Shown one piece after another: positions 3,523 through 60,449 of a stretch of 64,000 nt of DNA (positions within the stretch are counted from its first letter, which is position 1; each line of letters begins with the position of its first letter). Location of the stretch: NCBI GenBank assembly GCA_947470025.1, contig CANIRU010000001.1:7331-71330 (forward strand), given 5' to 3'. The notes beneath the pieces were generated by a model that did not search any database, had not been told where the DNA came from, and worked only from the letters and a program-made list of their open reading frames with translations. The position numbers and the translations under genes are program-made. The stretch comes from Chloroflexota bacterium (GTDB lineage Bacteria > Chloroflexota > Dehalococcoidia > UBA2979).

Positions 3523-3540
3523 TGGTCGGGAGCCGGAAGC

Positions 3541-3585
3541 CCTCACCCCAACCCTCTCCCACTTCGTGGGCGAGGGGGCCAGAGG
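3541..3585 (+). terminator. C-rich/G-rich hairpin element with UUCG-type loop just 3' of the acyl-CoA dehydrogenase gene (copy 1 of a 3-member family)
   Basis: cctcaccccaaccctctcccacTTCGtgggcgagggggccagagg. Related copies at 22866..22912 and 27519..27556 sit in the same position and orientation relative to an upstream stop codon. Confidence 0.35.
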
Positions 3586-6464: not shown

Positions 6465-7366
6465 CGCTCCTCGCCATCGCGAGTGCGGTGATCACGGTCG
6501 CGTGCTCCTCCGGTGCCCAACGCTCCACACCGACCGCAACCTCGGTGGGCACCGCGAGCGCCTCCGCATCGACGATCCCGTCCGCCAGCGCAGCAACCTC
6601 GAGTTCCGCGGAGGCGCGCACGCCCACCGCAAGCGCCAGCCCGACGGCAACGAGCACGCCGGTCGCCGCGACGGCGGTCCGTGCCGCGCCCCCCGCCGTC
6701 CCCGCGGCACCCGCCGTCACCTCCGGTCGCGCGGTCGAGATCGAGCGCGGGACGCCCTCGAGGCGCGAGGTGGCGTTCACGTTCGACTGCGCCGCGAACT
6801 CCGGGCCGACGGCCGAGATCCTCGATGTGCTGCGCGAGGAGGGCGTGCGCACGACGTGGTTCATGGTCGGCCTGTGGGCGGAGCAGCACCAGGAGCTGAC
6901 GAAGGTGATCGCGCGCGAGCACGAGCTGGCGAACCACTCGTGGGCCCACCCCGACTACCGCGACCTGACGGACGCGGAGATCGTCGCGGACATGGAGCAG
7001 CTCGACCGCTACCTGATCACGCTGACGGGGAAGGGCACGAAGCCGTTGTGGCGCGCGCCCTCCGGCGCACGGGATCAGCGCGTGCTGGAGGCAGCCGCCG
7101 CTGCCGGCTGGCCGCTGCACATCTTCTGGACGATCGGCCGGGACGCGAACGGCTACACCGTCACCGGCGATACCGGCGACTGGCGTGACATCCCCGCCGC
7201 CGAGGTGATGGCGAACACGGTGAAGGCGGCAGGCCTCGGACCGGGCGTGATCACGGTGAGCCACTGCGACAAGCCGTCCACCGCAGCGGTGATGCGCGAG
7301 ACAATCCAGCTCTTCCGCCGCGAGGGCCTGCGTATCGTCACGGTGTCGGAGATGCTCCGCCCGTAG
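6434..7366 (+). CDS. Polysaccharide deacetylase (NodB homology) lipoprotein
   Basis: MGTPSQLRRVTLLAIASAVITVACSSG is a lipoprotein signal, followed by an Ala/Ser/Thr-rich linker and FTFDCAANSGPT...ANHSWAHPD...WRAPSG NodB motifs. Confidence 0.85.
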   Translation: MGTPSQLRRVTLLAIASAVITVACSSGAQRSTPTATSVGTASASASTIPSASAATSSSAEARTPTASASPTATSTPVAATAVRAAPPAVPAAPAVTSGRAVEIERGTPSRREVAFTFDCAANSGPTAEILDVLREEGVRTTWFMVGLWAEQHQELTKVIAREHELANHSWAHPDYRDLTDAEIVADMEQLDRYLITLTGKGTKPLWRAPSGARDQRVLEAAAAAGWPLHIFWTIGRDANGYTVTGDTGDWRDIPAAEVMANTVKAAGLGPGVITVSHCDKPSTAAVMRETIQLFRREGLRIVTVSEMLRP

Positions 7367-7427
7367 CCCGCGGTTGAGATCGAACCGGGCTGCGGCTTCG
7401 CGTCGTACCGTCGAGGTGATCGAGCGC

Positions 7428-7530
7428 GGCGGCCCACCCCTACCCCTCTCGGCGCGGGAGGGGTTCAGAAGAAGAGAACCAACCGTGAGGGGCTGCGCCC
7501 CTCACACTCCGGCGGAATCTGCCAGGCTCC
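7428..7530 (+). repeat. Partial copy of the MITE-like element: left TIR plus conserved core, no right TIR
   Basis: ggcggcccacccctacccctctcggcgcgggaggggttcagaagaagagaaccaaccgtgaggggctgcgcccctcacactccggcggaatctgccag is about 90% identical to the cores at 9915.. and 14465.. Confidence 0.7.
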
Positions 7531-7585
7531 GACCGCCTTCCGGATCCGGACCGCGCTGCGCGCGCCTGCCGCGCGACCGTGTGCG

Positions 7586-8569
7586 CTACGCGGGGACGCC
7601 GAGGTAGCGCAGGATGCCGTCCGCGATGCCCTTCGCGATGGCGTCGCGGACCGTGTCGCTCTTCAACATCGCGGCATCGTCAGGGCTCGAGATGAACAGC
7701 GACTCGAGGAGCGCGGCGGGCATGTTCGTCGCCTCTTTCGCAGCGACCGGCGGGCCGCTCTGCGCACCGCTCTGTCCGCCGCCCGAGGTCGGCGCTCCGC
7801 CGGGCGATAGGACGAAGAGCCCCACGCAGCGCCCATTGAAGTTGCGCCAGCATGCCGCGTCGATGATCCCGCGGTTGGGGGAGGGGTACCCGGCATTCGC
7901 CGCGCCCCTCAACGCACCGTCCAGCAGCTCCTTCGCGAGCCGGTAGTTCTCGTCCGCGAAGGGGCGGCGGCTCTCGTAGTAGACCTCGAAGCAGCGCATG
8001 TTCGGATCGCCCGAGCCGTTCGAGTGGAGCGACACGAAGATGTCCGCGCCGATGCGGTTCGCTGCGCTCACCCGCTGCTGCAGGTCGTTGCGCGTCGAGT
8101 TGCGCGTGTCGCCGTTCGGCGTGACCAGACCCGTCGCGCGCCCGTTGTCCTCGCGCGTGAGGTGCACCTGCACGCCCGCCGCGACGAGGTAGGCGCGCAC
8201 ACGCTACGCCATGTCGAGGTTGGAGTCACGCTCCACGACGCCGTACGCCGCCGCGCCGCTCTCGTCGCCCCCATGGCCGGGGTCGAGCGCCACCAGGAAC
8301 CCGGAGCGATCCGTCCTCGGCGTGCGCGGCTGCGTCGCCGGAACGGGGATCGATCCGACGCGCGCCGATCCGGTGGTCAGCGTGGCGGTCGCCGTCCCCT
8401 CGGTCGCCGCTGCGCTGCTGGACGTGGCCCTGGTCGCGGCGGCGGGTGCGGTCGTCGCACCATCGCGCGGCGGGCTGGCTGTGGGGCCGCAGGCGGCGAG
8501 GAGCAGCGCGATGACCGGCGCCATCATCAGCGCGGAGGCGAGCGCAACAGGGCGACGGGAGCGTGTCAT
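7586..8569 (-). pseudogene. N-acetylmuramoyl-L-alanine amidase (Amidase_3) lipoprotein gene interrupted by an in-frame TAG
   Basis: ORFs 8204..8833 and 7586..8200 are in the same frame, separated by a TAG at 8204-8206 (...ERDSNLDMA*RVRAYLVAAGVQVHLTRED...). The catalytic Amidase_3 domain spans the stop. The lipoprotein signal is MTRSRRPVALASALMMAPVIALLLAACG, with the start at 8569. Confidence 0.55.
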
Positions 8570-8711
8570 CGGTGAACCTTCGTCGTGCCGCTGGGCTCGG
8601 CGGTGAGCATCGAGTGTAAACAAACGTCGAGGGCAGGGTGTTGGCCCTGCCCTCGATCGGTACGTGCGGCACGGCGCGGCGGATGGCTGCGCGGATGTGC
8701 TAGCGAGCGCG

Positions 8712-9779
8712 CTACTTCGCGCGGGCGTACTGGACGGGCCACTCGTGCTCCGCGCCCAGCGCCTTCGCTGCGTGCATCGGCCAGTACGGGTCGCGCAGCT
8801 CCTCGCGGGCGAGCAGCACGACGTCCGCATCACCCGATGCCACGATGCCCTCCGCCTGGTTCGGCTCGGAGATCAGACCGACCGCTCCGGTCGGGATGCC
8901 GACCGCGTCGCGGATCGTGCGAGCGAAGCCGACCTGATAGCCGGGGTACACGGTCAGCTTCTGGTGCGGCAGGTTGCCACCGGACGAGCAGTCGATCATG
9001 TCGACGCCCGCGTCCTTCAGCAGGGTCGACAGCGCCACCGAGTGTTCGAGATCCCAGCCATCCTCGACGTACTCGCTTGCGGAGATGCGTACCAGCAGCG
9101 GCATGTTCGCAGGGATCGCGTCGCGCACGACCTTCGCGATGTCGAGCGTGAGCTTCGTACGACCCGCGAACGAGCCGCCGAACTCATCGGTGCGCAGGTT
9201 GGTGTGCGGAGAGAGGAACTGGTGCAGCAGGTAGCCGTGCGCCGAGTGGATCTCGATCACGCGGAATCCCGCTCGCACGGCGCGCTCTGCGCCCGCGGCG
9301 AACGCGGCGATGATGCCATGCACCTCGTCGGTGGTGTACTCGTGCGGCTGCGGGTAGCCCTCGTTGTACGCGATCGCGCTCGGGCCGCCCGGGACCCAGC
9401 CGCCGTCAGCCGGCGCGACGGGCTTTCCGCCGAGCCACGGGCGGTTCGTCGAGGCCTTGCGACCGGCGTGCGCGAGCTGGATCGCGGGCGCCGCGCCCTG
9501 CGACTCGATGAACCTGGTGATGCGGGAGAAGGCCGCGACCTGCTCCTCGTTGTAGATCCCGAGGTCCCAAGGAGTGATGCGGCCCTCATCGGTGACGGCG
9601 GTCGCCTCGGTCATGACGAGCCCGGCGCCGCCGCTCGCGCGCGATCCGAGGTGGACCAGGTGCCAGTCGGTCGGGATGCCGTCCGCGTTGTCGGCGGAGT
9701 ACTGGCACATCGGCGCGACCCAGACGCGGTTGCGCATCTCGAGGCCGCGAAGACGAATAGGGGTGAACAGCACGCTCAT
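8712..9779 (-). CDS. NADH:flavin oxidoreductase (Old Yellow Enzyme family)
   Basis: MSVLFTPIRLRGLEMRNRVWVAPMCQYSA...HSAHGYLLHQFLSPHTNLRTDEFGGS matches OYE motifs. Confidence 0.9.
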   Translation of the reverse strand: MSVLFTPIRLRGLEMRNRVWVAPMCQYSADNADGIPTDWHLVHLGSRASGGAGLVMTEATAVTDEGRITPWDLGIYNEEQVAAFSRITRFIESQGAAPAIQLAHAGRKASTNRPWLGGKPVAPADGGWVPGGPSAIAYNEGYPQPHEYTTDEVHGIIAAFAAGAERAVRAGFRVIEIHSAHGYLLHQFLSPHTNLRTDEFGGSFAGRTKLTLDIAKVVRDAIPANMPLLVRISASEYVEDGWDLEHSVALSTLLKDAGVDMIDCSSGGNLPHQKLTVYPGYQVGFARTIRDAVGIPTGAVGLISEPNQAEGIVASGDADVVLLAREELRDPYWPMHAAKALGAEHEWPVQYARAK

Positions 9780-9914
9780 GGGTGTCGGGTTCCTCGGTCG
9801 GGTGCGGGTGTCGGTGTGGAGCGAGCAGAGTACCACGTGGGGGTATGCGCGGCGTCCCCGGCGGAGCGGGGCGTGACCTCAGTGAGCCGAGCAGCGCATG
9901 AGATTCACCCGTTG

Positions 9915-10155
9915 GGCGGCCCACCCCTACCCCTCCCGGCTCGGGAGGGGTTCAGAAAGAAGAGAACCAACCGTGAGGAGCTGCGCCCCTCACACTCCCG
10001 GCGGAACTTGATGTGGCCGCGTGACGCCGGTGCGAGTGATTCGAGTCGTCTTGAGTCGAGGTGCGAAGCACCCTCGGTTCGATCGGGAGCACGAGGGCGG
10101 AGCCCTCGTTTCTCATCCCCTTCCCGTGCAGGGAAGGGGGCAGGGGATGGCCGCC
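9915..10155 (+). mobile_element. MITE-like non-autonomous element (about 240 bp) with roughly 40-nt imperfect terminal inverted repeats, copy 1
   Basis: Left end GGCGGCCCACCCCTACCCCTCCCGGCTCGGGAGGGG. The reverse complement of the right end is GGCGGCCATCCCCTGCCCCCTTCCCTGCACGGGAAGGGG. Each TIR is itself a hairpin. It shares the conserved core ttcagaa(a)gaagagaaccaaccgtgaggagctgcgcccctcacactcccggcggaa. Confidence 0.7.
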
Positions 10156-10204
10156 TCACGGTTGACCTCGACCGCCCTCGTCGCGGAGGACGGTGCCTCC
10201 CCTC

Positions 10205-11212
10205 TTACCGCGGCAGCGTGGAGAGGAAGGCGTCGACCTCGCGGGCGAAGTCCTTGGGTCGGTCGCCGGGGATGTAGCCGGTGGCGCCGGCGACGGTGAC
10301 GAGGCGTGCGTCCTTCATCTCCTGTACGACACGCTCCGCGACGTCCGCAGCAAGCCCGCGGCTGTGCTCCCCGCGCAGGACGAGGGTCGGCGCGCTGATT
10401 GCGTGGACGGCGACCCACAGCTCGGCGGCGCGGCGCTCTGACGAGGCGATGCGCTCCGCCTCCGGCACCAGTGCGCCGTTGTCGCGCGGACGCGGGTCCT
10501 GTTTCCACGTCCAGCCCTCGGGCGTCTCTTTGAGCGAGTGCGTCAGGCTGTACTCGATGTGCTCGCGCTTGCGCAGCGGGTTGAACTTCACGGCGCGGTC
10601 GAGGAAGTCCTCGAACCGTTCGAGGATGTCGGTCTCGCGATGGAACGCCTGCGTCGCCTGCCCCGCCTCGCGCATGCTCTCGGGGCCGACGTCCACCATC
10701 ACGAGCGCCTCGACGCGGTCGGGGTGCTCTGCGGCGTAGCGCATGGCGGCGACCCCCCCGAGCGACATCCCGGCGAGCGTCACGCGCTCGTAGCCGAGAT
10801 GGTCGAGGAACAGCTCCAGGTCGCCGTACATCAGGTCGTTCAGGTCGTCGTTGATGCGATCGTCGGGCGTCCAGTCGGTGTCGCCATGCCCGCGGAGGTC
10901 GAGGGCGACGAGGTGATAGCGGTCGCGCAGCAGCAGTGCGGCCATGTCCCACGTGTGCGCCGTCAGCCCGCCGCCGTGCAGCAGGATCACGTGCGGCAAC
11001 TGCGCGTTCCCCCAGTCGAGGTAGTGGAACTGCAACCCGCCCAGGAGCACGACGTGGTCGGCGGGCAGCACGATCGCGGGCGCGCCCAGCTCGATCGCTT
11101 CGGCGCAGGCGCGCATGCGTTCGCGGTAGTCGGCGGCGGGATCGGTGGTCACGGGCGGCGCTCCTCTGTGTCGGTAGCACAGCGGGGCGGCTACCTCGCG
11201 GGGAGCATACAC
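10205..11212 (-). CDS. Alpha/beta-fold hydrolase
   Basis: HVILLHGGGLTAHTWD...LRGHGDTDW...LAGMSLGG (nucleophile elbow GxSxG). An alternative GTG start at 11152 exists. Confidence 0.85.
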   Translation of the reverse strand: MYAPREVAAPLCYRHRGAPPVTTDPAADYRERMRACAEAIELGAPAIVLPADHVVLLGGLQFHYLDWGNAQLPHVILLHGGGLTAHTWDMAALLLRDRYHLVALDLRGHGDTDWTPDDRINDDLNDLMYGDLELFLDHLGYERVTLAGMSLGGVAAMRYAAEHPDRVEALVMVDVGPESMREAGQATQAFHRETDILERFEDFLDRAVKFNPLRKREHIEYSLTHSLKETPEGWTWKQDPRPRDNGALVPEAERIASSERRAAELWVAVHAISAPTLVLRGEHSRGLAADVAERVVQEMKDARLVTVAGATGYIPGDRPKDFAREVDAFLSTLPR

Positions 11213-11243
11213 AGGACGCGGGGGGCGTTCGTGACGGGATGCG

Positions 11244-11702
11244 CTATGGCGTGATCTCCGTGTCCGTGGGAGATGGGGGGCTGGTCCAGTCGCCGCACAC
11301 CGCCTCGACGTAGTACGTGTACACCGTCAGCGGCGCGAGGCCGCCATCCACGTACATCGTGCTGGCGCGGCCACCCTGGAACCACACGAGGGTGTAGGTC
11401 ACGTCCGGGTCCGCGATGCGGTAGACGTTGTAGCCGGTGGTGCAGGCGCTCGCCGATTGCGCCCAGTTCAGCGTGATCTGCCCCGGCCCGGTGAGCGTCG
11501 CGACCAAGGCAACCGGCGCGAGGACGTTCGCGGACGACACGGTGCTGACGTTCGACTGGGTCGCCGTGAACAGGCCGATGCTGCGCTCGATCGGGATCAC
11601 GTAGGTGCAGGAGGATGCGACGAGGATCGCGGACACGAGGAACCGCCACGAACTGATCGCGGCGGTCATCCTCGAGCGAAGGGCGATGGTCATCGACGTC
11701 AC
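11244..11702 (-). CDS. Secreted FN3-like domain protein, possible second SipW-cognate substrate
   Basis: Signal peptide MTAAISSWRFLVSAILVASS, FN3-like TLTGPGQITLNWAQSASACTTGYNVYR, and N-terminal SIGLFTATQSNVSTVSSANVL weakly resembling the SipW-cognate motif. Confidence 0.55.
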   Translation of the reverse strand: MTSMTIALRSRMTAAISSWRFLVSAILVASSCTYVIPIERSIGLFTATQSNVSTVSSANVLAPVALVATLTGPGQITLNWAQSASACTTGYNVYRIADPDVTYTLVWFQGGRASTMYVDGGLAPLTVYTYYVEAVCGDWTSPPSPTDTEITP

Positions 11703-11733
11703 GTCGTGCGTCCGTTGGGTTCGTGCGGTGCGC

Positions 11734-12300
11734 TTACGGGTTGTTCGCCGTCTGCTCCGCGTCGAAGGTGAAGGTCGCCGTTGTGGTCGCGTCCTGGAAC
11801 GCGTTTCCGGTCGCCAGCGGCAACTGGACCTTGAAGCACAATGTCTCGTTCGCCGCGGCGATCAGCGCGCGGTCGCCGGCCTGCGCGCCCTGGGCGTTGG
11901 AGCCGATGGCGCCGGTCGCGAGGGCGGCGGTCGCGAAGATGATCGCGCCGTCCTCGGCGGAGCAGGCGCTGGAGGTCTTGGCGCGGATCGTCAGCTCGAG
12001 CTGGCCCGCGAGCGCCTTGCCATCCGTGTTCGTGGTGTTCGTGGACATCGCGTAGCGCAGCGGCAGCGTGCCGTTGTTCGTGATCACGAGGGGGGCGATG
12101 ACGGAGTCCCCCGGCGCCATATTCGCGAGCGTCACCACTGCCGAGGCAGGTGCGCCCGCGAGCTGGATCGTGCCGCTGCCGAAGACGTTCGCGGCGTTCA
12201 CCTCGGAGTCCGTGAATACGGCGAGACTGTCGGCAGCGACAAAGCTGCCCATCGTGCCGGCCGTGAGGAGCGAGGCGAGAGCCAGTCGGAACAAGAACAT
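11734..12300 (-). CDS. TasA/camelysin-like secreted protein with SipW-cognate class signal peptide
   Basis: MFLFRLALASLLTAGTMGSFVAADSLAVFTDSEVNAANVFGSGTIQL carries the AxFxD...N.F..GT.xL hallmark of TasA/CalY-type SipW substrates. Confidence 0.75.
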   Translation of the reverse strand: MFLFRLALASLLTAGTMGSFVAADSLAVFTDSEVNAANVFGSGTIQLAGAPASAVVTLANMAPGDSVIAPLVITNNGTLPLRYAMSTNTTNTDGKALAGQLELTIRAKTSSACSAEDGAIIFATAALATGAIGSNAQGAQAGDRALIAAANETLCFKVQLPLATGNAFQDATTTATFTFDAEQTANNP

Positions 12301-12609
12301 GCGCGAATCCGCTCAGTAATCCCGTTGCACCGATTCTCGGTTGCCCCATCCGCGTCCGGCAGACCTCAACGTCGGGGCTCTCCCTAGTCTTAACCAACGT
12401 CCTCCCGCATCCCCGATCGAGGGTTCTCACCCGTCCCCACCACGTCCGTGGTGTCTCGGATCGGCCCACCGAGCCCAAAGATGCGGGGTGTCCCCGATAC
12501 GCGGGGTAGGGGTTCCCCGGCACCCTCACTAGGCGAACCCTCATGGGGGTGCTCGAACGCTCTCAGGAGGGCCCGGATGGGCTCCTAAGGAGAGCGGCGG
12601 TAACCAGAG

Positions 12610-14409
12610 GTGCCGAGGATGGTCCAGGGCAATTCGATCGGCGATGGCCGCGTGGCCGGACGGCTGGCCGACGCGGGCTCCGTGCTGAAGTCACGCGACA
12701 CGTGGCGCGTCGCGGCGCGCACGCTCCTGATGCTCGCGTCGACGCTCATCACCTTCAGCGTCCTCGCCGCCGCGATCCCCACGTTCCTCGGCATGGACTC
12801 GTTCATCATCGACGGCGGCTCGATGCGGCCGGCGGTGCCCGCGGGCGCCCTCGTCGTCGCCCAGCGCGTCGACCCGGCAATCGTGCAGGCGGGTGAGATC
12901 ATCACGTTCCGTCACAGCACGTCGCCGAACTCCCCTGTGACCCACCGCGTCGTGAAGGTCCTGCGCGAGGCCAACGGCACCACGAACCTGCTGACGAAGG
13001 GCGACGCGAACGCGAGCGCCGACCCGGAGCCCGTGGCGACCGACCTGCCGGTGTCACGCATGGTCTACAGCCTGCCGTACGCGGGCACCGTCCTCGAGTT
13101 CTCGCGCACCAGTGCCGGGAAGGTCGTGCTGATCGCGGCCCCGGCGCTGCTGCTGCTGCTGAGCATCGGCCGGAAGTCCGGCGGTGCGCAGGTTGAATCC
13201 GTTGTCTATGCATCCATCCCTGACGAGTCGAGTGAAGCGGCCACCGAGGTGCCCGCGCCGGAGAAGGTTGTCCTCATGGCCATGGCGAATCCCGTTTCCG
13301 CTGTCCCCGGCGCGCCCAGCGCACCCGATGCGCTGACGCGACTGGCCCAGCGGCCGGCCTCGGCGCCGCGCCCCGGGCTCGCGAGGCGCCTCATCGCCGC
13401 GTTCCAGGACGAACCGGCGACCCCCGTGTACTACGAGGCGGCGCCCGCGCCGGTCGCGGCGCCCATCGCGCCTGCCCAGCCCGTCCAGGCGACGATGTCG
13501 CCGCGTCCCGTGGTGGTGCCGATGGCCGCCGCTCCGTCCGCGTCGATCTACGCGGCCCCGGCGATGGCCCCCGCGATGCCAGCTCCCACGGCGATGCCGA
13601 TCATGCACGAGGCCGCATCGGCGCCACTGCAGATCGTCGCGCAGGCGGCGCAGGCCGTGCATGCGTACGCGCAGACGCCGGTGTCCGACATCGGCGACAT
13701 GCTCGACACCGACAACGAGCCGCAACTCCTGCACCTCGCGCGGTTGCGCCTGCGCTCCGTCGCGCGGCTCGCGGACATCATGCAATCCTTTGACCGCGTG
13801 GAGACCGAGGCGGCTCCGCTGCTCAATCTCGTCACCGACCTCGACCGATTGCGGCAGCAGTTCGCTGAGAACCTCGACGAGGCGATGCGCCCCCTGACGG
13901 AGTTCGCCGACCGCTGGGATGACAACCTGCTCACGCTCGCGGAGCGCATGGACGGCGAGCTGCCGCAGCAGATCGACCTCGCCGCGGAGCGCCGCCGCAT
14001 CGCGGAGATCCGAGCGCAGGTCCCGCACCGTCACACGCTGCTGATCAACCAGTTCGCGCTCGAGAAGCAGGCGATCGATGCAGCCCTGACCGTCTTCGAC
14101 GACCAGGTCGCGCGCCTGGAGGCTCAGCTCACCGCCGCGCGCCGCACCGCCGAGGCGATCGGGGACGGCATGCGGACGGCCGACTTCGGCCGCACCGTCG
14201 CCTTCCTCCGCCGCCGCACGTCGCAACTCGCGAAGCTCGCGGAGCGTGGCGCGGCGACGCCGGAGGACATCGCTCAGGCGCTGCCCCCGGCCTCGTCGCT
14301 CGCCGCGAACGACGAGGAGCACCTCGCGAACTCGCCGTACCTCGCCTCGGTGATCGGCATCCTCGACGACTCGGCGTCCGCGAAGCGACAAGGGAGCGGC
14401 GCCGCGTAG
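12610..14409 (+). CDS. sipW: SipW-type (S26B, archaeal-like) signal peptidase I with a roughly 400-aa C-terminal extension
   Basis: TM1, then GGSMRPAVPAG (catalytic Ser), VTHRVVKV (His), TKGDANASAD (Asp), then TM2 (VVLIAAPALLLLLSIG). This is followed by Pro/Ala-rich low complexity and a long predicted coiled coil (DRLRQQFAENLDEAMRPLTEFADRWDDNLLTLAERM...VARLEAQLTAARRTAEA). Confidence 0.75.
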   Translation: MPRMVQGNSIGDGRVAGRLADAGSVLKSRDTWRVAARTLLMLASTLITFSVLAAAIPTFLGMDSFIIDGGSMRPAVPAGALVVAQRVDPAIVQAGEIITFRHSTSPNSPVTHRVVKVLREANGTTNLLTKGDANASADPEPVATDLPVSRMVYSLPYAGTVLEFSRTSAGKVVLIAAPALLLLLSIGRKSGGAQVESVVYASIPDESSEAATEVPAPEKVVLMAMANPVSAVPGAPSAPDALTRLAQRPASAPRPGLARRLIAAFQDEPATPVYYEAAPAPVAAPIAPAQPVQATMSPRPVVVPMAAAPSASIYAAPAMAPAMPAPTAMPIMHEAASAPLQIVAQAAQAVHAYAQTPVSDIGDMLDTDNEPQLLHLARLRLRSVARLADIMQSFDRVETEAAPLLNLVTDLDRLRQQFAENLDEAMRPLTEFADRWDDNLLTLAERMDGELPQQIDLAAERRRIAEIRAQVPHRHTLLINQFALEKQAIDAALTVFDDQVARLEAQLTAARRTAEAIGDGMRTADFGRTVAFLRRRTSQLAKLAERGAATPEDIAQALPPASSLAANDEEHLANSPYLASVIGILDDSASAKRQGSGAA

Positions 14410-14464
14410 CGCGGCTCGCGCTCACGAACAGACTTCGCCGCGAGCACCGTTGAAGTGCCAGCGT

Positions 14465-14685
14465 GGGGCCGCCCACCCCTGCCCCTCCCGGCGTGGGCGG
14501 GGTTCAGAAGAAGAGGAACCAACGGTGAGGAGCTGCGCCCCTCACACTCCCGGCGGAATCTGCCAGTCTGCGTATCCGTTTCGCGCGCGGTGTTTAGGAT
14601 CATCGGTCTCGGGGAGCGCGAGGGCGTTGTCCTCGCTATTCGTTCCCCTTCCCGCGCAGGGAAGGGGGCAGGGGGATGGGCCGCC
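14465..14685 (+). mobile_element. MITE-like non-autonomous element with terminal inverted repeats, copy 2
   Basis: Left end GGGGCCGCCCACCCCTGCCCCTCCCGGCGTGGGCGGGG. The reverse complement of the right end is GGCGGCCCATCCCCCTGCCCCCTTCCCTGCGCGGGAAGGGG. The conserved core is identical to copy 1 apart from a few substitutions. Confidence 0.7.
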
Positions 14686-14842
14686 ATACGCCGCCACCCC
14701 GACGGGACTCACCGGCGAACAGGACTGTCCCCTGCGCTGTCCTTCGGATGGCCCACGGCGTGTCCGCGGCACGCAGCACGACGCCGAATCGCGGGATCGT
14801 CGTGACGTATCCTCAAGGGGTGATGCGCGAGAGGACTGACTG

Positions 14843-15667
14843 ATGACCGACGCCCCCACCGACGCTCCTGCGACCTCGACGGCCGAGGCGACCTCGGGTC
14901 GGATGCCCACGATCTTCCTCGCGCACGGGTCGCCCAGCACCGTCGCCGACGGCGCATGGATGGGGCAGCTCAACCAATGGGCGCACAACATGCCGCGTCC
15001 ACGCGCGGTACTGATGATATCCGCGCACTGGGAAGAGCGGCCGTTCACCATCGGCGCGACGACGCCGCAGCCGCTGATCTACGACTTCTACGGCTTCCCC
15101 GAGGAGTACTACCAGCTCCAGTACGCCTCGCCCGGTGCGCCGGAGCTGGCGCAGCGGGTGAAGGAACTGGTGGGCAAGACCCAGCCAGTCGCCGAGGAGC
15201 CCGAGCGCGGGCTGGACCACGGCGCGTACGTGCCGCTGATGGCGATGTACCCCGAGGCGGACGTGCCGGTGCTGCAGGTGTCGCTGCCGACGCTCTCCGC
15301 GCCCGCGCTCTTCGACCTCGGTCGTCAGCTCGCGCCGCTGCGCGACGAGGGCGTGTTGATCGTGGGCAGCGGCTTCCTGACGCACAACCTGCGGCTGATG
15401 GACCGTCGGCCCGGTGCGATCACGCCCGGCTGGGCGCAGGAGTTCGACCACTGGGCCGAGGAGGCGCTCGCGACGTGCGACGTCGACGCGATGGTGGAGT
15501 ACGAGCGCCGTGCGCCGGCGGTGGACTGGGCGCTGCCGACGCGTGAGCACTTCGTGCCGGCAGTCGTCACGCTCGGCTCCGCGGTGGACTCGCCGGGCGA
15601 GGTGACATTCCCGATCACCGGCTGGCTCGGCGGCGCGATGACCAAGCGCTCCGTCCAGTACGGGTAG
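14843..15667 (+). CDS. Class III extradiol ring-cleavage dioxygenase (YgiD/DOPA-dioxygenase-like, LigB family)
   Basis: IFLAHGSPS...LMISAHWEE...LDHGAYVPL...IVGSGFLTHN matches the YgiD-family motifs. Confidence 0.9.
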   Translation: MTDAPTDAPATSTAEATSGRMPTIFLAHGSPSTVADGAWMGQLNQWAHNMPRPRAVLMISAHWEERPFTIGATTPQPLIYDFYGFPEEYYQLQYASPGAPELAQRVKELVGKTQPVAEEPERGLDHGAYVPLMAMYPEADVPVLQVSLPTLSAPALFDLGRQLAPLRDEGVLIVGSGFLTHNLRLMDRRPGAITPGWAQEFDHWAEEALATCDVDAMVEYERRAPAVDWALPTREHFVPAVVTLGSAVDSPGEVTFPITGWLGGAMTKRSVQYG

Positions 15668-22865: not shown

Positions 22866-22912
22866 ATCCTCACCTCCGCCCTCTCCCACTGCAACGTTCG
22901 TGGAATGGTTCG
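22866..22912 (+). terminator. C-rich/G-rich hairpin element, copy 2, immediately 3' of the stop codon
   Basis: cctcacctccgccctctcccactgcaacgttcgtgg is related to 3541..3585 and 27519..27556. Confidence 0.3.
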
Positions 22913-26682: not shown

Positions 26683-26934
26683 ATGCCGATCTACCCGTTC
26701 CGCTGCGATCCCTGCGACGTGGAGTTCGAGGTGACACGCAAAGCCTCAGCGGCGCGTGACGCCGCTGCGTGTCCGGTCTGCGGCAAGCCCGCGCGCCGTG
26801 TGTTCACGGCGATCGGGCGCTCTGGTGCGTCGGCGAAGAGCGGTGCGCCCTCGGTGGGTGCAGCGCCGGCGGGCGGCGGATGGTCACACGGCGGCCATTC
26901 GCACGGCGCCGGGGAGTCGGGCCATTCGCACTAG
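26683..26934 (+). CDS. FmdB-family zinc-ribbon protein with His/Gly-rich tail
   Basis: MPIYPFRCDPCDVEFEV...CPVCGK (CxxC...CxxC) with a ggaggagga RBS. The C-terminus is GGGWSHGGHSHGAGESGHSH. Confidence 0.8.
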   Translation: MPIYPFRCDPCDVEFEVTRKASAARDAAACPVCGKPARRVFTAIGRSGASAKSGAPSVGAAPAGGGWSHGGHSHGAGESGHSH

Positions 26935-26997
26935 GTTGAAGCCCGCAGGTCAGGAGCGGGGCGGGCCGGCTATACCCGGCATGGGCCCCAAGAAGAA

Positions 26998-27480
26998 TCA
27001 GCGGATCGGGCGCAACCGCACGACGGGGACGATGCGAGGCGCGGCCTTCGTCTGGTGATCCGTGTACCGCGGCCACATCGCGACGAGCGCGGGCCAGAGG
27101 CGGGTGCGCTCGGCATCGTCGAGCACCTCGGCGCGCACGGGGACGCGATGACGATCCACGTCCACCCACGCCTGCGCGTTGGCCTCGATGTTGCGGTACC
27201 AGGCGGGGTGCTTCGGTGAGCCGGCCTTCGAGGCGACGATGATGAAGTCGCGGCCGTCGCGCAGGTAGAACAGTGCGTTGGCGCGCAGTTCGCCGCTGGC
27301 GCGACCGATGGTCGTGAGCAGCAGCGTCGGGATGTACGGGACGCCCTCGCGGTCCGTGCTCGCCCACGAGCGGAGCGAGTAGCCGCTCCACTGCACGGCG
27401 GCGCGCTCGATCGGCTCGAAGATGCCGGCCTTCGTCAGCGCGTTCACCAGCGTCGACGGATCGAACTCGATCTTCGCCAT
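26998..27480 (-). CDS. Deazaflavin (F420)-dependent nitroreductase family (Ddn-like, PPOX class)
   Basis: MAKIEFDP...LLLTTIGRASGELRANALFYLRDGRDFIIVASKAGSPKHPAWYRNIEANAQAWVDV matches the family. Confidence 0.8.
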   Translation of the reverse strand: MAKIEFDPSTLVNALTKAGIFEPIERAAVQWSGYSLRSWASTDREGVPYIPTLLLTTIGRASGELRANALFYLRDGRDFIIVASKAGSPKHPAWYRNIEANAQAWVDVDRHRVPVRAEVLDDAERTRLWPALVAMWPRYTDHQTKAAPRIVPVVRLRPIR

Positions 27481-36497: not shown

Positions 36498-36905
36498 GTG
36501 ACTCAGAGAATCTACGTTGGAAACCTCTCGTTCTCCGCGACGGAGGCCGAGGTATCCGAGCTCTTCTCCCAGTTCGGCGAAGTTGTCTCGTGTGCCCTCC
36601 CGACCGACCGCGAGACCGGTCGCCCGCGCGGCTTCGGCTTCGTGGAGATGTCGAACGACGACGCCAAGAAGGCGATCCAGTCGCTCGACGGCAAGGACTT
36701 CGGCGGTCGCTCGCTGCGCGTCAACGAGGCTCAGCCTCGTGAGAGCCGCGGCGGCGGCGGCGGTGGTGGTTACGGCGGCGGCGGTGGTGGCGGCGGCTAC
36801 GGTGGTGGCGGTGGTGGCTACGGCGGGGGCGGTGGCTCTCGCGGTGGTGGCGGCGGCTACGGCGGGGGCGGTTCCCGCGGTGGCGGCGGCGGTGGCCGCT
36901 ACTAG
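36498..36905 (+). CDS. Glycine-rich RNA-binding protein (RRM domain)
   Basis: A GTG start gives RIYVGNLSFSATEAEVSELFSQFGEVVSCALPTDRETGRPRGFGFVEMS (RNP2/RNP1 motifs), then (GGGY)n repeats. Confidence 0.9.
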   Translation: MTQRIYVGNLSFSATEAEVSELFSQFGEVVSCALPTDRETGRPRGFGFVEMSNDDAKKAIQSLDGKDFGGRSLRVNEAQPRESRGGGGGGGYGGGGGGGGYGGGGGGYGGGGGSRGGGGGYGGGGSRGGGGGGRY

Positions 36906-37057
36906 TCCGCAGCCGATCTTCGGCAGCTGACTGATCGTCCGATCATCGATCGACTGATCACAGAAGGCGGGGTCGCAAGACCCCGCCTTCTGCTTGTCTC
37001 TCACGTTTCGGCTCGTCTCCGCGCACACGTGCTTGCACAGACCGATGCGCCCTCAGG

Positions 37058-59392: not shown

Positions 59393-59459
59393 CCCCTGCG
59401 GGCGCGGCTCAGGCATTGTCGAGGCGGCACGGGCCGCCTCGATTGCTATGCGGAGACGA

Positions 59460-60449
59460 CTAGGCGGGGCGGATGATGCCGCGGAAGCCAATGTGTGACA
59501 TGCCGCTGTCCACCATCTGCGCCTGGCGTGCGGCGGGGCGGTAGCGCCAACAGTAGTTCGGGGCGCACAGGTGCGACCCGCCCTTGATTACCTTGCGCGG
59601 GATGTGCGCCGCGCCGGGGTCGTGCTCGTCGAAGCTCTGCTCGACCGACATGACGCGAGGATTCGCCGGCGTGCAACAGCTGCACATCTCCTCGACGCCG
59701 TGTTGCGGCGTGTAGAAGTCGCTGGTCCACTCCCAGACGTTGCCGGCCATGTCACGCAGGCCGTAGCCGTTCGGCGGAAATGAGCCGACGGGGGCGGTGC
59801 GCGCGTAGCCGTCCGACTTGAAGTTCTGCCACGGGAACTCGCCCTGCCACGTGTTCGCCATCATCTTGCCGCCGGGCGCGAACTCCTCGCCCCAGGTGTA
59901 CGTGGCGCCCTCGAGGCCGCCGCGCGCGGCGAACTCCCACTCGGCCTCCGTCGCGATCTCCTTGCCGCCCCACGTGGCGTACGCCTCGACGTCCTCCCAT
60001 GCGAGGTGGACGACGGGGTGCTTGCGGCGCTTCGAGACATCGCTGCCGGGGCCCTCGGGGCGTCGCCAGGACGCGCCGGGGATGAACTTCCACCAGTTGC
60101 TCAGGTTGGTGATGTCGACCCGGCCGGGCGGCTGCTTGAAGACGAGCGAGCCGGGGAGGAGCTGCTCCGGCTTGAGATCGGGGAAGACCGCCGGGTCGAT
60201 CGGGCGCTCTGCCACCGTGACGTAGCCGGTCGCGCGCACGAAGCGCGTGTAGTCCTCGTTCGTCACGGTGTGGACGTCCATCCAGAAGCCGTCGACGGTG
60301 ACCGGGTGCGGCGGGTGCTCCTCCGGGAAGTGCTCGAAGCTGGAACCCATGGTGAACGTGCCGCCGGGGATCCAGACCATGCCCGGTGCGGGCGCCTCAC
60401 CCGGCGCCTCAGTGGGCCGGGGGCGCGGGGTGCTCACGTCGGAGGCCAT
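59460..60449 (-). CDS. Formylglycine-generating enzyme (FGE/SUMF1) family protein
   Basis: MVWIPGGTFTMGS...RDMAGNVWEWTSDFY... with the start at 60449. The upstream part of listed ORF 59460..61622 is a read-through across pstS in another frame. Confidence 0.85.
   Translation of the reverse strand: MASDVSTPRPRPTEAPGEAPAPGMVWIPGGTFTMGSSFEHFPEEHPPHPVTVDGFWMDVHTVTNEDYTRFVRATGYVTVAERPIDPAVFPDLKPEQLLPGSLVFKQPPGRVDITNLSNWWKFIPGASWRRPEGPGSDVSKRRKHPVVHLAWEDVEAYATWGGKEIATEAEWEFAARGGLEGATYTWGEEFAPGGKMMANTWQGEFPWQNFKSDGYARTAPVGSFPPNGYGLRDMAGNVWEWTSDFYTPQHGVEEMCSCCTPANPRVMSVEQSFDEHDPGAAHIPRKVIKGGSHLCAPNYCWRYRPAARQAQMVDSGMSHIGFRGIIRPA

Follow-up and report, generated by a model that had tools for sequence, protein, structure and literature searches.

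A dispersed intergenic repeat family of Chloroflexota with ends resembling Box C triplex-motif units

The Box C repeat of Escherichia coli, rediscovered as the PIT element and named TM_ECO, is built of an arm rich in C, an arm rich in G and another G-rich block, which mirrors the one before it; in vitro, its single strand folds into an intrastrand purine-motif triplex, a structure that does not form in RNA (PMC4666352), and the same sequences also fit a switch between G-quadruplex and hairpin (HPGQ; Kaplan et al. 2016, PMC5100583). The 23 copies in strain MG1655 are all intergenic and include five inverted pairs, in every one of which the two members differ in type; local instability and small deletions have been connected with the units, and no association with a transposon is known (PMC4666352). 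In the survey that defined TM_ECO, the motif was recorded for Proteobacteria (Holder et al. 2015, PMC4666352). REPINs are doublets of REP sequences mobilised by RAYT tyrosine transposases, and the REP sequences fall into GTAG- and CGTC-tagged superfamilies (Di Nocera et al. 2013, PMC3733652). Here we describe a repeat of about 250 bp that occurs three times in 64,000 nucleotides of a Chloroflexota bacterium (assembly GCA_947470025.1, contig CANIRU010000001.1, positions 7,331 to 71,330 of the forward strand; hereafter the window) and many more times in related genomes. We consider it probable that this element is a non-coding, non-autonomous, structure-based intergenic repeat of high-G+C Chloroflexota, comparable to a REPIN or to a Box C pair; by our inference it stands closest to REPINs in its logic and to Box C pairs in its parts.

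Architecture of the element and its paired ends

The original prediction, made from the letters of the window, proposed a family of MITEs (miniature inverted-repeat transposable elements) that has three conserved cores in the same orientation. The cores are present by sequence, by blastn and by a hidden Markov model (HMM) of the core, which finds exactly three matches in the 64 kb, all on the plus strand (7428-7516, 9915-10006 and 14468-14558). The corresponding copies, c1, c2 and c3, start at 7428, 9915 and 14467, the last of these starts having been placed at 14465 before. By blastn, c1 is 94.6% identical to c2 over 92 nt (E 4e-28) and 85% identical to c3 over 127 nt (E 4e-31), and c2 and c3 share 73% identity over 256 nt (E 2e-37). 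Both c2 and c3 are complete, with a length of about 230-250 nt and a terminus that is an inverted version of their own left end; c1 is a solo core, the sequence of which stops about 15 nt past the core without a right end. The inverted arms of c2 (9905-9933 and 10137-10165) span 29 nt and are 79% complementary, a weaker inverted symmetry continues about 20 nt further outward (GTCGAGGTGGCAGCG ... CGCTGCCACCTCGAC), and c3 is built likewise. The parts of the three copies, and one related unit outside them, are as follows.

9915..10155, plus strand: c2, a complete element running from left to right triplex-motif unit (sequence and blastn; an orthologous copy lies in L072, a syntenic contig of a relative)
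9915..9950, minus strand: left unit of c2 (TM_L), S type, CCCCTCCC-GAGCC-GGGAGGGG-TA-GGGGTGGG-CCGCC, a three-block mirror motif read from the sequence
9951..9972, minus strand: tract of c2 that is purine-rich on the plus strand and forms the T-rich tract GGTTGGTTCTCTTCTTTCTGAA after hairpin H3 on the minus strand
9973..9993, minus strand: core hairpin H3 of c2, GTGAGGAGC-TGC-GCCCCTCAC, terminator-like on this strand together with the T-tract; its stem contains A.C on the plus strand and G.U on the minus strand
9994..10021, plus strand: conserved core end of c2, ACTCCCGGCGGAAC, then TTGATGTGGCCGCG, in which the left outer-flank motif is echoed in the same orientation
10029..10109, plus strand: variable middle of c2, with the block GCGAGTGATTCG, hairpin H4 (GGTGC-GAA-GCACC) and hairpin H5 (CACGAGGGC-GGA-GCCCTCGT), the latter 7-9 nt before the right unit
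10117..10155, plus strand: right unit of c2 (TM_R), D type, CCCCTTCCC-GTGC-AGGGAAGGGGG-CA-GGGGATGG-CCGCC
9897..9914, plus strand: left outer-flank block of c2, B type, GAGATTCACCCGTT
10156..10172, plus strand: right outer-flank block of c2, TCACGGTTGACCTCGAC, the inverted partner of the left block
7428..7529, plus strand: c1, a solo core without right unit (TM_L 7428-7463, H3 7485-7505, core end to 7529; outer-flank block 7409-7427)
14467..14685, plus strand: c3, complete (TM_L 14467-14502, H3 14525-14545, H5 14618-14636, TM_R 14645-14685)
14414..14780, plus strand: stretch missing from the syntenic site in two relatives, L072 and L074; an indel of 352-367 bp that contains c3
3540..3576, minus strand: solo unit of the canonical TM_ECO / Box C pattern, CCCTCGCCC-ACGAAGT-GGGAGAGGG-TTG-GGGTGAGGG, of a related type and outside the three copies

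Across the family, the left unit reads on the minus strand CCCCTCCC-GCGCC-GGGAGGGG-TA-GGGGTGGG-CCGCC (S type, with the three blocks CCCCTCCC / GGGAGGGG / GGGGTGGG) and the right unit on the plus strand CCCCCTTCCC-GCGC-AGGGAAGGGGG-CA-GGGGGATGGG-CCGCC (D type, with the blocks CCCCCTTCCC / GGGAAGGGGG / GGGGGATGGG). These units, 36-41 nt long and on opposite strands, are separated by about 165-200 nt and oriented so that their hairpins face inward and the third G-tract and CCGCC tail point outward; the pairing of an S-type left with a D-type right unit is found in 37 of 54 complete elements. The hairpins on which the original prediction was built (CCCCTCCCGGC/CGGGAGGGG, CCCCTTCCC/GGGAAGGGG and, at 9973-9993, GTGAGGAGC-TGC-GCCCCTCAC) are all genuine, and so is the inverted arrangement of the ends; what does not hold is their description as a single terminal inverted repeat (TIR), as two different types of unit are involved. 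Within one element, the left and right ends have a mean identity of 76%, and among copies left ends are 85% and right ends 88% alike. The 75-80% identity given for the presumed TIRs is explained by the fact that the two types differ in a coordinated, three-way manner: wherever the second block of either type departs from G, the third block has the mirrored departure, yielding T*A or A*A triads, and this consistency extends to 73 of 76 well-formed units (45 T/A/T and 28 TT/AA/AT across the three blocks), the other 3 being mixed.

Judged by its sequence, each end belongs to the Box C / PIT / TM_ECO motif class and could form an intrastrand triplex or a G-quadruplex. The class is delimited by stems of 6-15 nt, loops of 1-6 nt and a purine-motif third block (PMC4666352), and the ends possess its C-rich arm, complementary G-rich arm and mirroring third G-rich block. 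They share with TM_ECO the three-block design, a second loop of 2-3 nt and four G-runs that fit a G-quadruplex, as well as a strictly intergenic location, an organization as inverted pairs of two types and local deletion or replacement. The differences lie in the stems (CCCCTCCC or CCCCCTTCCC, with a second loop of 2 nt, as opposed to the TM_ECO pattern CCCTCNCCC...GGGNGAGGG), so that no end of the element matches the strict form of that pattern, CCCTCNCCC N3-6 GGGNGAGGG N3 GGGNGAGGG, and in the geometry of the pairs: those of E. coli are less than 50 bp apart, in the order plus then minus, whereas the units described here are about 170-200 bp apart, in the order minus then plus, with their third strands outward and a conserved core enclosed between them. 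In addition, the copy number per genome appears much higher. The family had been called previously undescribed, and for the composite element this stands; for the ends it does not, as they are of a described class. The composite is new, and its building blocks and general behaviour are of known kinds. None of the family's own sequences is found in the searchable literature.

A further link to Box C comes from cores without a right end, many of which continue into another hairpin unit, CCCTCTCCCC-loop-GGGGAGAGGG-TT-GGGGTGAGGG. The window contains one such unit on its own, at 3540-3576, which fits the TM_ECO pattern if a 7-nt first loop is allowed; 14 further matches occur in 13 related loci (for example at 2731-2766 in L016 and at 668-703 in L048). 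The same unit matches 4121 of 5426 complete E. coli genomes, with about 85% identity over 41 nt. One of these matches, at the 3' end of ycjD in strain 042, is identical to the window unit at all 34 non-loop positions, including a G.A mismatch in the hairpin. Either horizontal spread or convergence could account for this identity, which makes a shared, possibly mobile, origin of the motif worth testing. The annotation of E. coli K-12 has no repeat feature for Box C. A link to DUF559, considered on account of the overlap between the Box C unit and the 3' end of ycjD, was rejected: neither the window nor the loci contain a DUF559 gene, and the one weak tblastn match is NrdR.

The ends enclose a highly conserved core of about 60 nt, composed of the purine tract TTCAGAAGAAGAGAACCAA, the hairpin H3 (GTGAGGAGC-TGC-GCCCCTCAC) and the block ACTCCCGGCGGAAC. 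In the canonical unit of about 245-250 bp, the purine tract, the 9-bp GC hairpin and the block CTCCCGGCGGAA are followed by a same-orientation echo of the outer-flank block (TCGATGTGGCCGCG), by the block GCGAGTGATTCG and then by variable small hairpins. Among these is H5, the end of which lies 9 nt short of the right unit in 29 of 53 cases; its stem was found in at least eight versions, each fully complementary (GCGAGGGC, TCAAAGGGC, CCGAGGGGC, ACGAGGGC, CTGATGGGGT, TCGAAGGGGC, CTTGAAGGGC and others) and closed mostly by a GAA loop. The 21-nt hairpin H3 (GTGAGGAGCTGCGCCCCTCAC) is exactly reverse-complemented in place in about 9 of 88 copies (at about 5485-5505 in L041, and in L053, L036, L040 and L019), with the loop changed from TGC to GCA and the mismatch moved to the other arm, which is a signature of template switching within a hairpin. 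The outer-flank blocks, of A type (GGTGGCAGCG) or B type (GGTTCAACCG), were considered as a conserved closing helix and rejected in this role, as left and right types mix freely. Two further features were also observed. In a subfamily (L022, L015, L059, L052 and L038), the loop of the left-unit hairpin carries about 30 extra nucleotides (…CCCCTCG-TGCTTTCGGGGAGAACGGCGCTTCGCGC-GGGGCACGGGAGGGG), which constitute a nested extra hairpin; and at about 1793-1870 of L049, seven tandem repeats of the 11-nt sequence GCCCGTCGAGG lie immediately upstream of a copy of the element.

Dispersal, gain and loss among related genomes

Copy number was sampled by scanning species-representative genomes once with a 22-nt core pattern, GTGAGGNGCTGCGCCCCTCACAC. 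The scan found 69 loci, all in five Chloroflexota metagenome-assembled genomes (MAGs) labelled Chloroflexi or Dehalococcoidia: about 47 in CAMDAY01, 15 in CANJBO01, 5 in JBFWQJ01 and 1 each in CANKAU01 and CAYTEC01. Applied to the 482 kb of these loci, the core HMM gives 116 matches, 65 on the plus and 51 on the minus strand, and 93 of them cover most of the model; the expectation of many copies genome-wide, rather than of a local duplication, is thereby borne out. Inconsistent association of the right end with the core had been named as a reason to abandon the proposed architecture. A recognisable right end is found within 430 nt of 57 of the 93 cores (54 distinct complete elements), at a paired-end spacing of 190-376 bp with a majority near 245-250 bp. 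The cores that lack it form four groups, namely those at a contig end, those truncated like c1, those followed by a different unit of the same kind and those in which the right unit is deleted. The best pairs within the family are 87-90% identical, and their alignments are bounded exactly by GGCGGCC...GGCCGCC. Subfamilies are genome-specific: one marked by GAACCAA comprises 46 of 61 copies in CAMDAY and all three window copies, another marked by AGATG comprises 15 of 18 copies in CANJBO. It follows that multiplication or homogenisation of the copies postdates the split of the lineages.

Between genomes with 82-92% identity, single intergenic sites have gained or lost the element. In CAMDAY, two loci that show synteny and 87-92% identity with the window have copies in three spacers (22892-22905, 26930-27000 and 59393-59469) that in the window are short and lack the element. 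Two further contigs, found through homologues of the Old Yellow Enzyme gene next to c2, are syntenic with the window over all three copies: L072, with about 88-90% nucleotide identity, and L074, with about 82%. At the c3 site, both have a spacer of 69-75 bp with a shared junction (TAGCGCG^ACGCC in L072), where the window has 352-367 extra bases, from 14414 to about 14765-14780. Since the nearer and the farther relative have the same empty junction, an insertion in the lineage of the window is the simpler reading. Only the central 270 nt or so of the extra DNA resemble the family, about 50 nt to the left and about 95 nt to the right matching no other copy, and the sole direct repeat at the junction is imperfect (11/15). 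The c2 site is occupied in L072, where the right unit and outer flank are swapped for 45 unrelated bases, and is a 112-bp spacer without the element in L074; the c1 site differs in all three genomes. In addition, a copy at an orthologous site is common to CANKAU (L021) and CAMDAY (L029), with flanks that are 83% identical.

Between the window and L072, the orthologous c2 copies have 85% identity, with hardly any change from GAACCAA to GTGGCCGCGTG, compared with 69% identity at the four-fold degenerate sites of the adjacent gene. This slow evolution may reflect host selection on a function or conversion between copies. The second of these is what a swap in the outer flank points to: within 9897-9914, a 10-nt block is fully replaced between the orthologues (ATTCACCCGT against GTGGCAGCGG) amid adjacent sequence that is 85-95% identical. 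Other copies have one or the other block type at either end, a pattern suggestive of patchy conversion from one copy to another.

The CAMDAY01 MAG (isolate MoH-23oct19-41), which shows synteny and 87-92% nucleotide identity with the window, has a G+C content of about 70% and was deposited as 'Dehalococcoides mccartyi'. The G+C content of D. mccartyi is about 47-49%, and the species label of the record looks wrong.

Possible modes of spread and action

On the reading that we favour, the element would spread, or would have spread, as DNA through recognition of its folded single strands by an enzyme similar to the RAYT of REPINs, or by another enzyme of HUH type; structure-provoked repair or template switching at non-B DNA would be an alternative route. 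Classic cut-and-paste by a DDE transposase is unlikely because no target-site duplication (TSD) of 4-8 bp was found, the ends are heterotypic and the hairpins are kept by compensatory change. The likeness to REPINs extends from two short, imperfect inverted palindromes around a spacer to the lack of a TSD, the frequency of heterodimers, the variation between related genomes and an intergenic location downstream of open reading frames (ORFs) that prefers convergent and tandem gene pairs. The element differs in its length (about 250 bp, against about 100 bp for a REPIN), in a core that carries its own hairpin and in the absence of a conserved GTAG tag, its units ending in GGGGTGGG-CCGCC; CGTC is present only in the outer block of some copies (CGTCGAGG). 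Neither a RAYT nor another Y1 gene was found beside the copies in the sampled loci. Two candidate tags or targets were rejected: GTAG near the copies is the TAG stop codon, the majority stop in these genomes, of neighbouring genes, and TCGAGG, examined as a separate REP-like target palindrome, is a hexamer common in coding sequence, without specific 12-mers.

Other repeat families are less similar. Correia/NEMIS, ERIC/IRU, RUP and BOX elements have defined TIRs, and most have a TSD (such as TA) and a plausible parent insertion sequence (IS). The element resembles them in size range, inverted ends, numerous copies, a location between genes and, possibly, an influence on the stability or the ends of transcripts, and differs in that no defined TIRs, TSD or IS parent were found for it. 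BIMEs are defined by protein-binding motifs (IHF, gyrase). Like them, the family forms modular mosaics, with solo cores, alternative right-hand units and nested extra units; unlike them, it is built of other units and gives no evidence of IHF or gyrase motifs.

All three window copies are intergenic, as predicted, and the nine genes around them are ordinary and unrelated, coding for an ECF sigma factor, a polysaccharide deacetylase, an amidase_3 protein, an Old Yellow Enzyme, an alpha/beta hydrolase, an M73 peptidase, a 599-aa protein, a LigB-type dioxygenase and an AcrB-type pump. Across the sampled loci, where crude gene calls based on third-position G+C (GC3) were used, the left-hand gene faces the element with its stop in 61 cases and with its start in 17, at a median stop-to-element distance of 75 nt. 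Spacers with an element are convergent in 25, tandem in 23 and divergent in 2 cases, compared with 35, 86 and 32 for element-free spacers (chi-square p = 2.5e-4); the copies favour convergent gene pairs, avoid divergent ones and prefer the 3' sides of genes. Where the neighbouring genes are in tandem, 21 elements share their orientation and 10 oppose it (p = 0.07).

In this setting, the resident hairpins would probably act on transcripts. H3 followed by its T-tract would terminate minus-strand transcription that enters from the right, H5 would provide a weaker stop on the plus strand, and the core as a whole would probably end or stabilise transcripts. In a consensus scan, H3 and the following GGTTGGTTCTCTTCTTTCTGAA of c1 and c2 are terminator-like on the minus strand, as is H5 of c3 on the plus strand; the scan gives 6 sites in 7.6 kb as opposed to 1.4 +/- 1.4 in shuffled sequences; the T-tracts of genuine-looking terminators beside other copies are similarly short (for example, CTTCTGCTT and TTCTTCGTG).

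Several points weigh against this picture of a mobile, terminator-bearing element. Current mobility is unproven, as there are no recent copies and identity reaches a maximum of about 90%. At c3, the indel of 352-367 bp exceeds the part that is related to the family, so that the ends of a mobile unit are undefined. The 546 kb of draft sequence examined yielded no mobilising gene, and the mechanism is one that we infer. The three-way consistency of the ends rests on two unit types (three with the TM_ECO-like one), and hence on few independent events. In tandem contexts, the orientation that places the U-tract of H3 in the transcript is the rarer one (10 against 21), a misfit with selection for termination. 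Finally, the PIT/TM units of E. coli showed neither promoter nor terminator activity, and a stable triplex in vivo is unsupported (PMC4666352).

More tentatively, Box C / PIT / TM units in general could be the recognition ends of widespread mobile DNA that leaves no TSD, with the Chloroflexota composite as its intact, amplified form and a structure-specific enzyme moving the units. If so, this would account both for the lack, since the 1990s, of an explanation for the function and spread of these units in E. coli and for the identity at 34 positions between the window unit and its E. coli counterpart.

That the family is primarily a structured RNA seems unlikely to us. The copies would then encode a minus-strand, multi-copy small RNA (sRNA) ending at H3 and its U-tract, or act in cis as a 3'-UTR terminator or stabiliser; spread would be secondary, and RNA function would explain the conservation. 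Such a role agrees with the terminator-like hairpin and T-tract, the compensatory stems of H5, the location downstream of genes, the slower evolution of the orthologous copy relative to four-fold sites and an H3 stem that, in most copies (45), has A.C on the plus strand and hence G.U on the minus strand. The last is a weak test of strand, dominated by a single inherited substitution. Folding is also far better than that of shuffled sequences, for RNA of the plus (z = -5.6 and -4.6) and minus strand (z = -5.9), but it is equally good as DNA (z = -5.2), and was thus rejected as a guide to strand or molecule. Rfam gives no match at gathering score in the whole window, and only chance-level ones at E <= 10 in 7300-14900; a promoter scan found none of sigma-70-like type; and RNAalifold, run on 36 copies, detects compensatory change almost exclusively in H5, with a covariation term of only -0.15. 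Against an RNA role stand, furthermore, the mixed orientation of the copies to neighbouring genes, the truncation or right-end replacement of about 40% of them and the conserved design of the ends, since a purine-motif triplex does not form in RNA (PMC4666352).

The MITE proposed originally, in the classic sense of an internally deleted derivative of a DDE insertion sequence, moved in trans via its TIRs of about 40 nt and flanked by a TSD of fixed length, is improbable. The family is indeed small (190-376 bp), non-coding and dispersed (93 cores in 482 kb, five MAGs), it has inverted ends and it is polymorphic for presence, c3 being missing in L072 and L074, c2 in L074 and three CAMDAY copies in the window. 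No TSD was detected, however, and the 546 kb examined yielded neither an autonomous version nor a recurrent transposase. Compared with permuted flanks, those of 48 complete copies show no enrichment of direct repeats (4, 5, 6 or 8 bp) at any combination of offsets, and the 11/15 repeat at the c3 junction, which could be taken for a TSD, has too many mismatches (4/15) for an insertion younger than the split from L072. The ends are two units that are about 76% alike, each type being conserved at 85-88%, and the starts of pairwise alignments pile up at 0, -5 and -20 before a smooth tail to -100, so that similarity fades outward without a sharp terminus. A cognate insertion sequence would share the element's end sequence, GGCGGCCCACCCC...; none of 42 end pairs encloses a gene, and the only candidate for an autonomous copy, a long pair in L019, is an artefact of a one-base deletion in its left end. 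A metagenome scan for left units without a following core returned two loci only, both further mosaics of similar units. The window had been said to lack a transposase, which is correct for the nine genes around the copies, to which the check was confined; nor was a transposase found among the recurrent neighbours of the family (383 called proteins, compared all-against-all) or at the two mosaic loci. The recurrent neighbours are ordinary paralogues (MFS, SDR, ABC, CoA-transferase, MurT, luciferase-like, MoxR and HisF-like proteins).

It is similarly doubtful that the family spreads passively with no dedicated enzyme, as hot spots of non-B DNA (triplex, G-quadruplex or hairpin), with copying, conversion and deletion brought about by replication slippage, template switching and gene conversion. 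The instability and small deletions associated with TM units in E. coli (PMC4666352) would be expected of such hot spots, as would the deletion or replacement of the c2 right unit in L072, the in-place inversions of H3, the exchange of outer-flank blocks between orthologues and the non-family sequence co-inserted at c3. These processes explain loss and homogenisation, but not the arrival of about 350 bp at an empty c3 site, and they leave more than 90 dispersed copies of constant architecture unexplained. Chance similarity or a segmental duplication within this 7-kb stretch, suggested by the presence of all three window copies within 7.3 kb on the same strand, is refuted by E-values of 1e-28 to 1e-37, unrelated flanking genes, 69 loci on many contigs in five MAGs and the absence of c3 from syntenic relatives that keep the neighbouring genes.

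Sequence surroundings and implications

The window has a G+C content of about 70% along its whole length, and three features of it lie apart from the family. Upstream of the Old Yellow Enzyme gene on the minus strand (8712-9779), a block of about 60 nt at about 9787-9850 is about 95% identical to L072, compared with 69% at the four-fold sites of the gene; the imperfect palindrome TACCACGTGGGGGTA lies within this block, which is probably an operator or leader. In L077, a more distant relative, a PadR-family gene adjoins the Old Yellow Enzyme gene. Most genes end in TAG, with 28 of 42 called genes in the window and 240 of 341 in loci L001-L069; although the calls are crude, the stops of long, high-GC3 ORFs are unambiguous. 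In high-G+C bacteria TGA is usually dominant, and the G+C content of this lineage is about 70%. At about 36780-36910 on the plus strand, a coding repeat that terminates at a TAG codon specifies a C-terminal tail rich in Gly, Tyr and Arg (GGYGGG...SRGGGG), of a sort known from some RNA-binding proteins.

Repeats of this kind break metagenomic assemblies, and many of the copies described here are located at contig ends; they are also at risk of being annotated as sRNA genes or MITEs. Were the family only a decaying selfish repeat, the result would be an ordinary one. If, as we consider probable, it is a structure-based repeat of REPIN or Box C pair type, it would represent the clearest case so far of Box C/triplex-motif units serving as termini of an element subject to gain and loss. 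This element, of which each genome probably has hundreds of copies, belongs to a phylum distant from E. coli and carries a conserved, terminator-like cargo, and it would offer a concrete route to how these long-known motifs spread and what they do.

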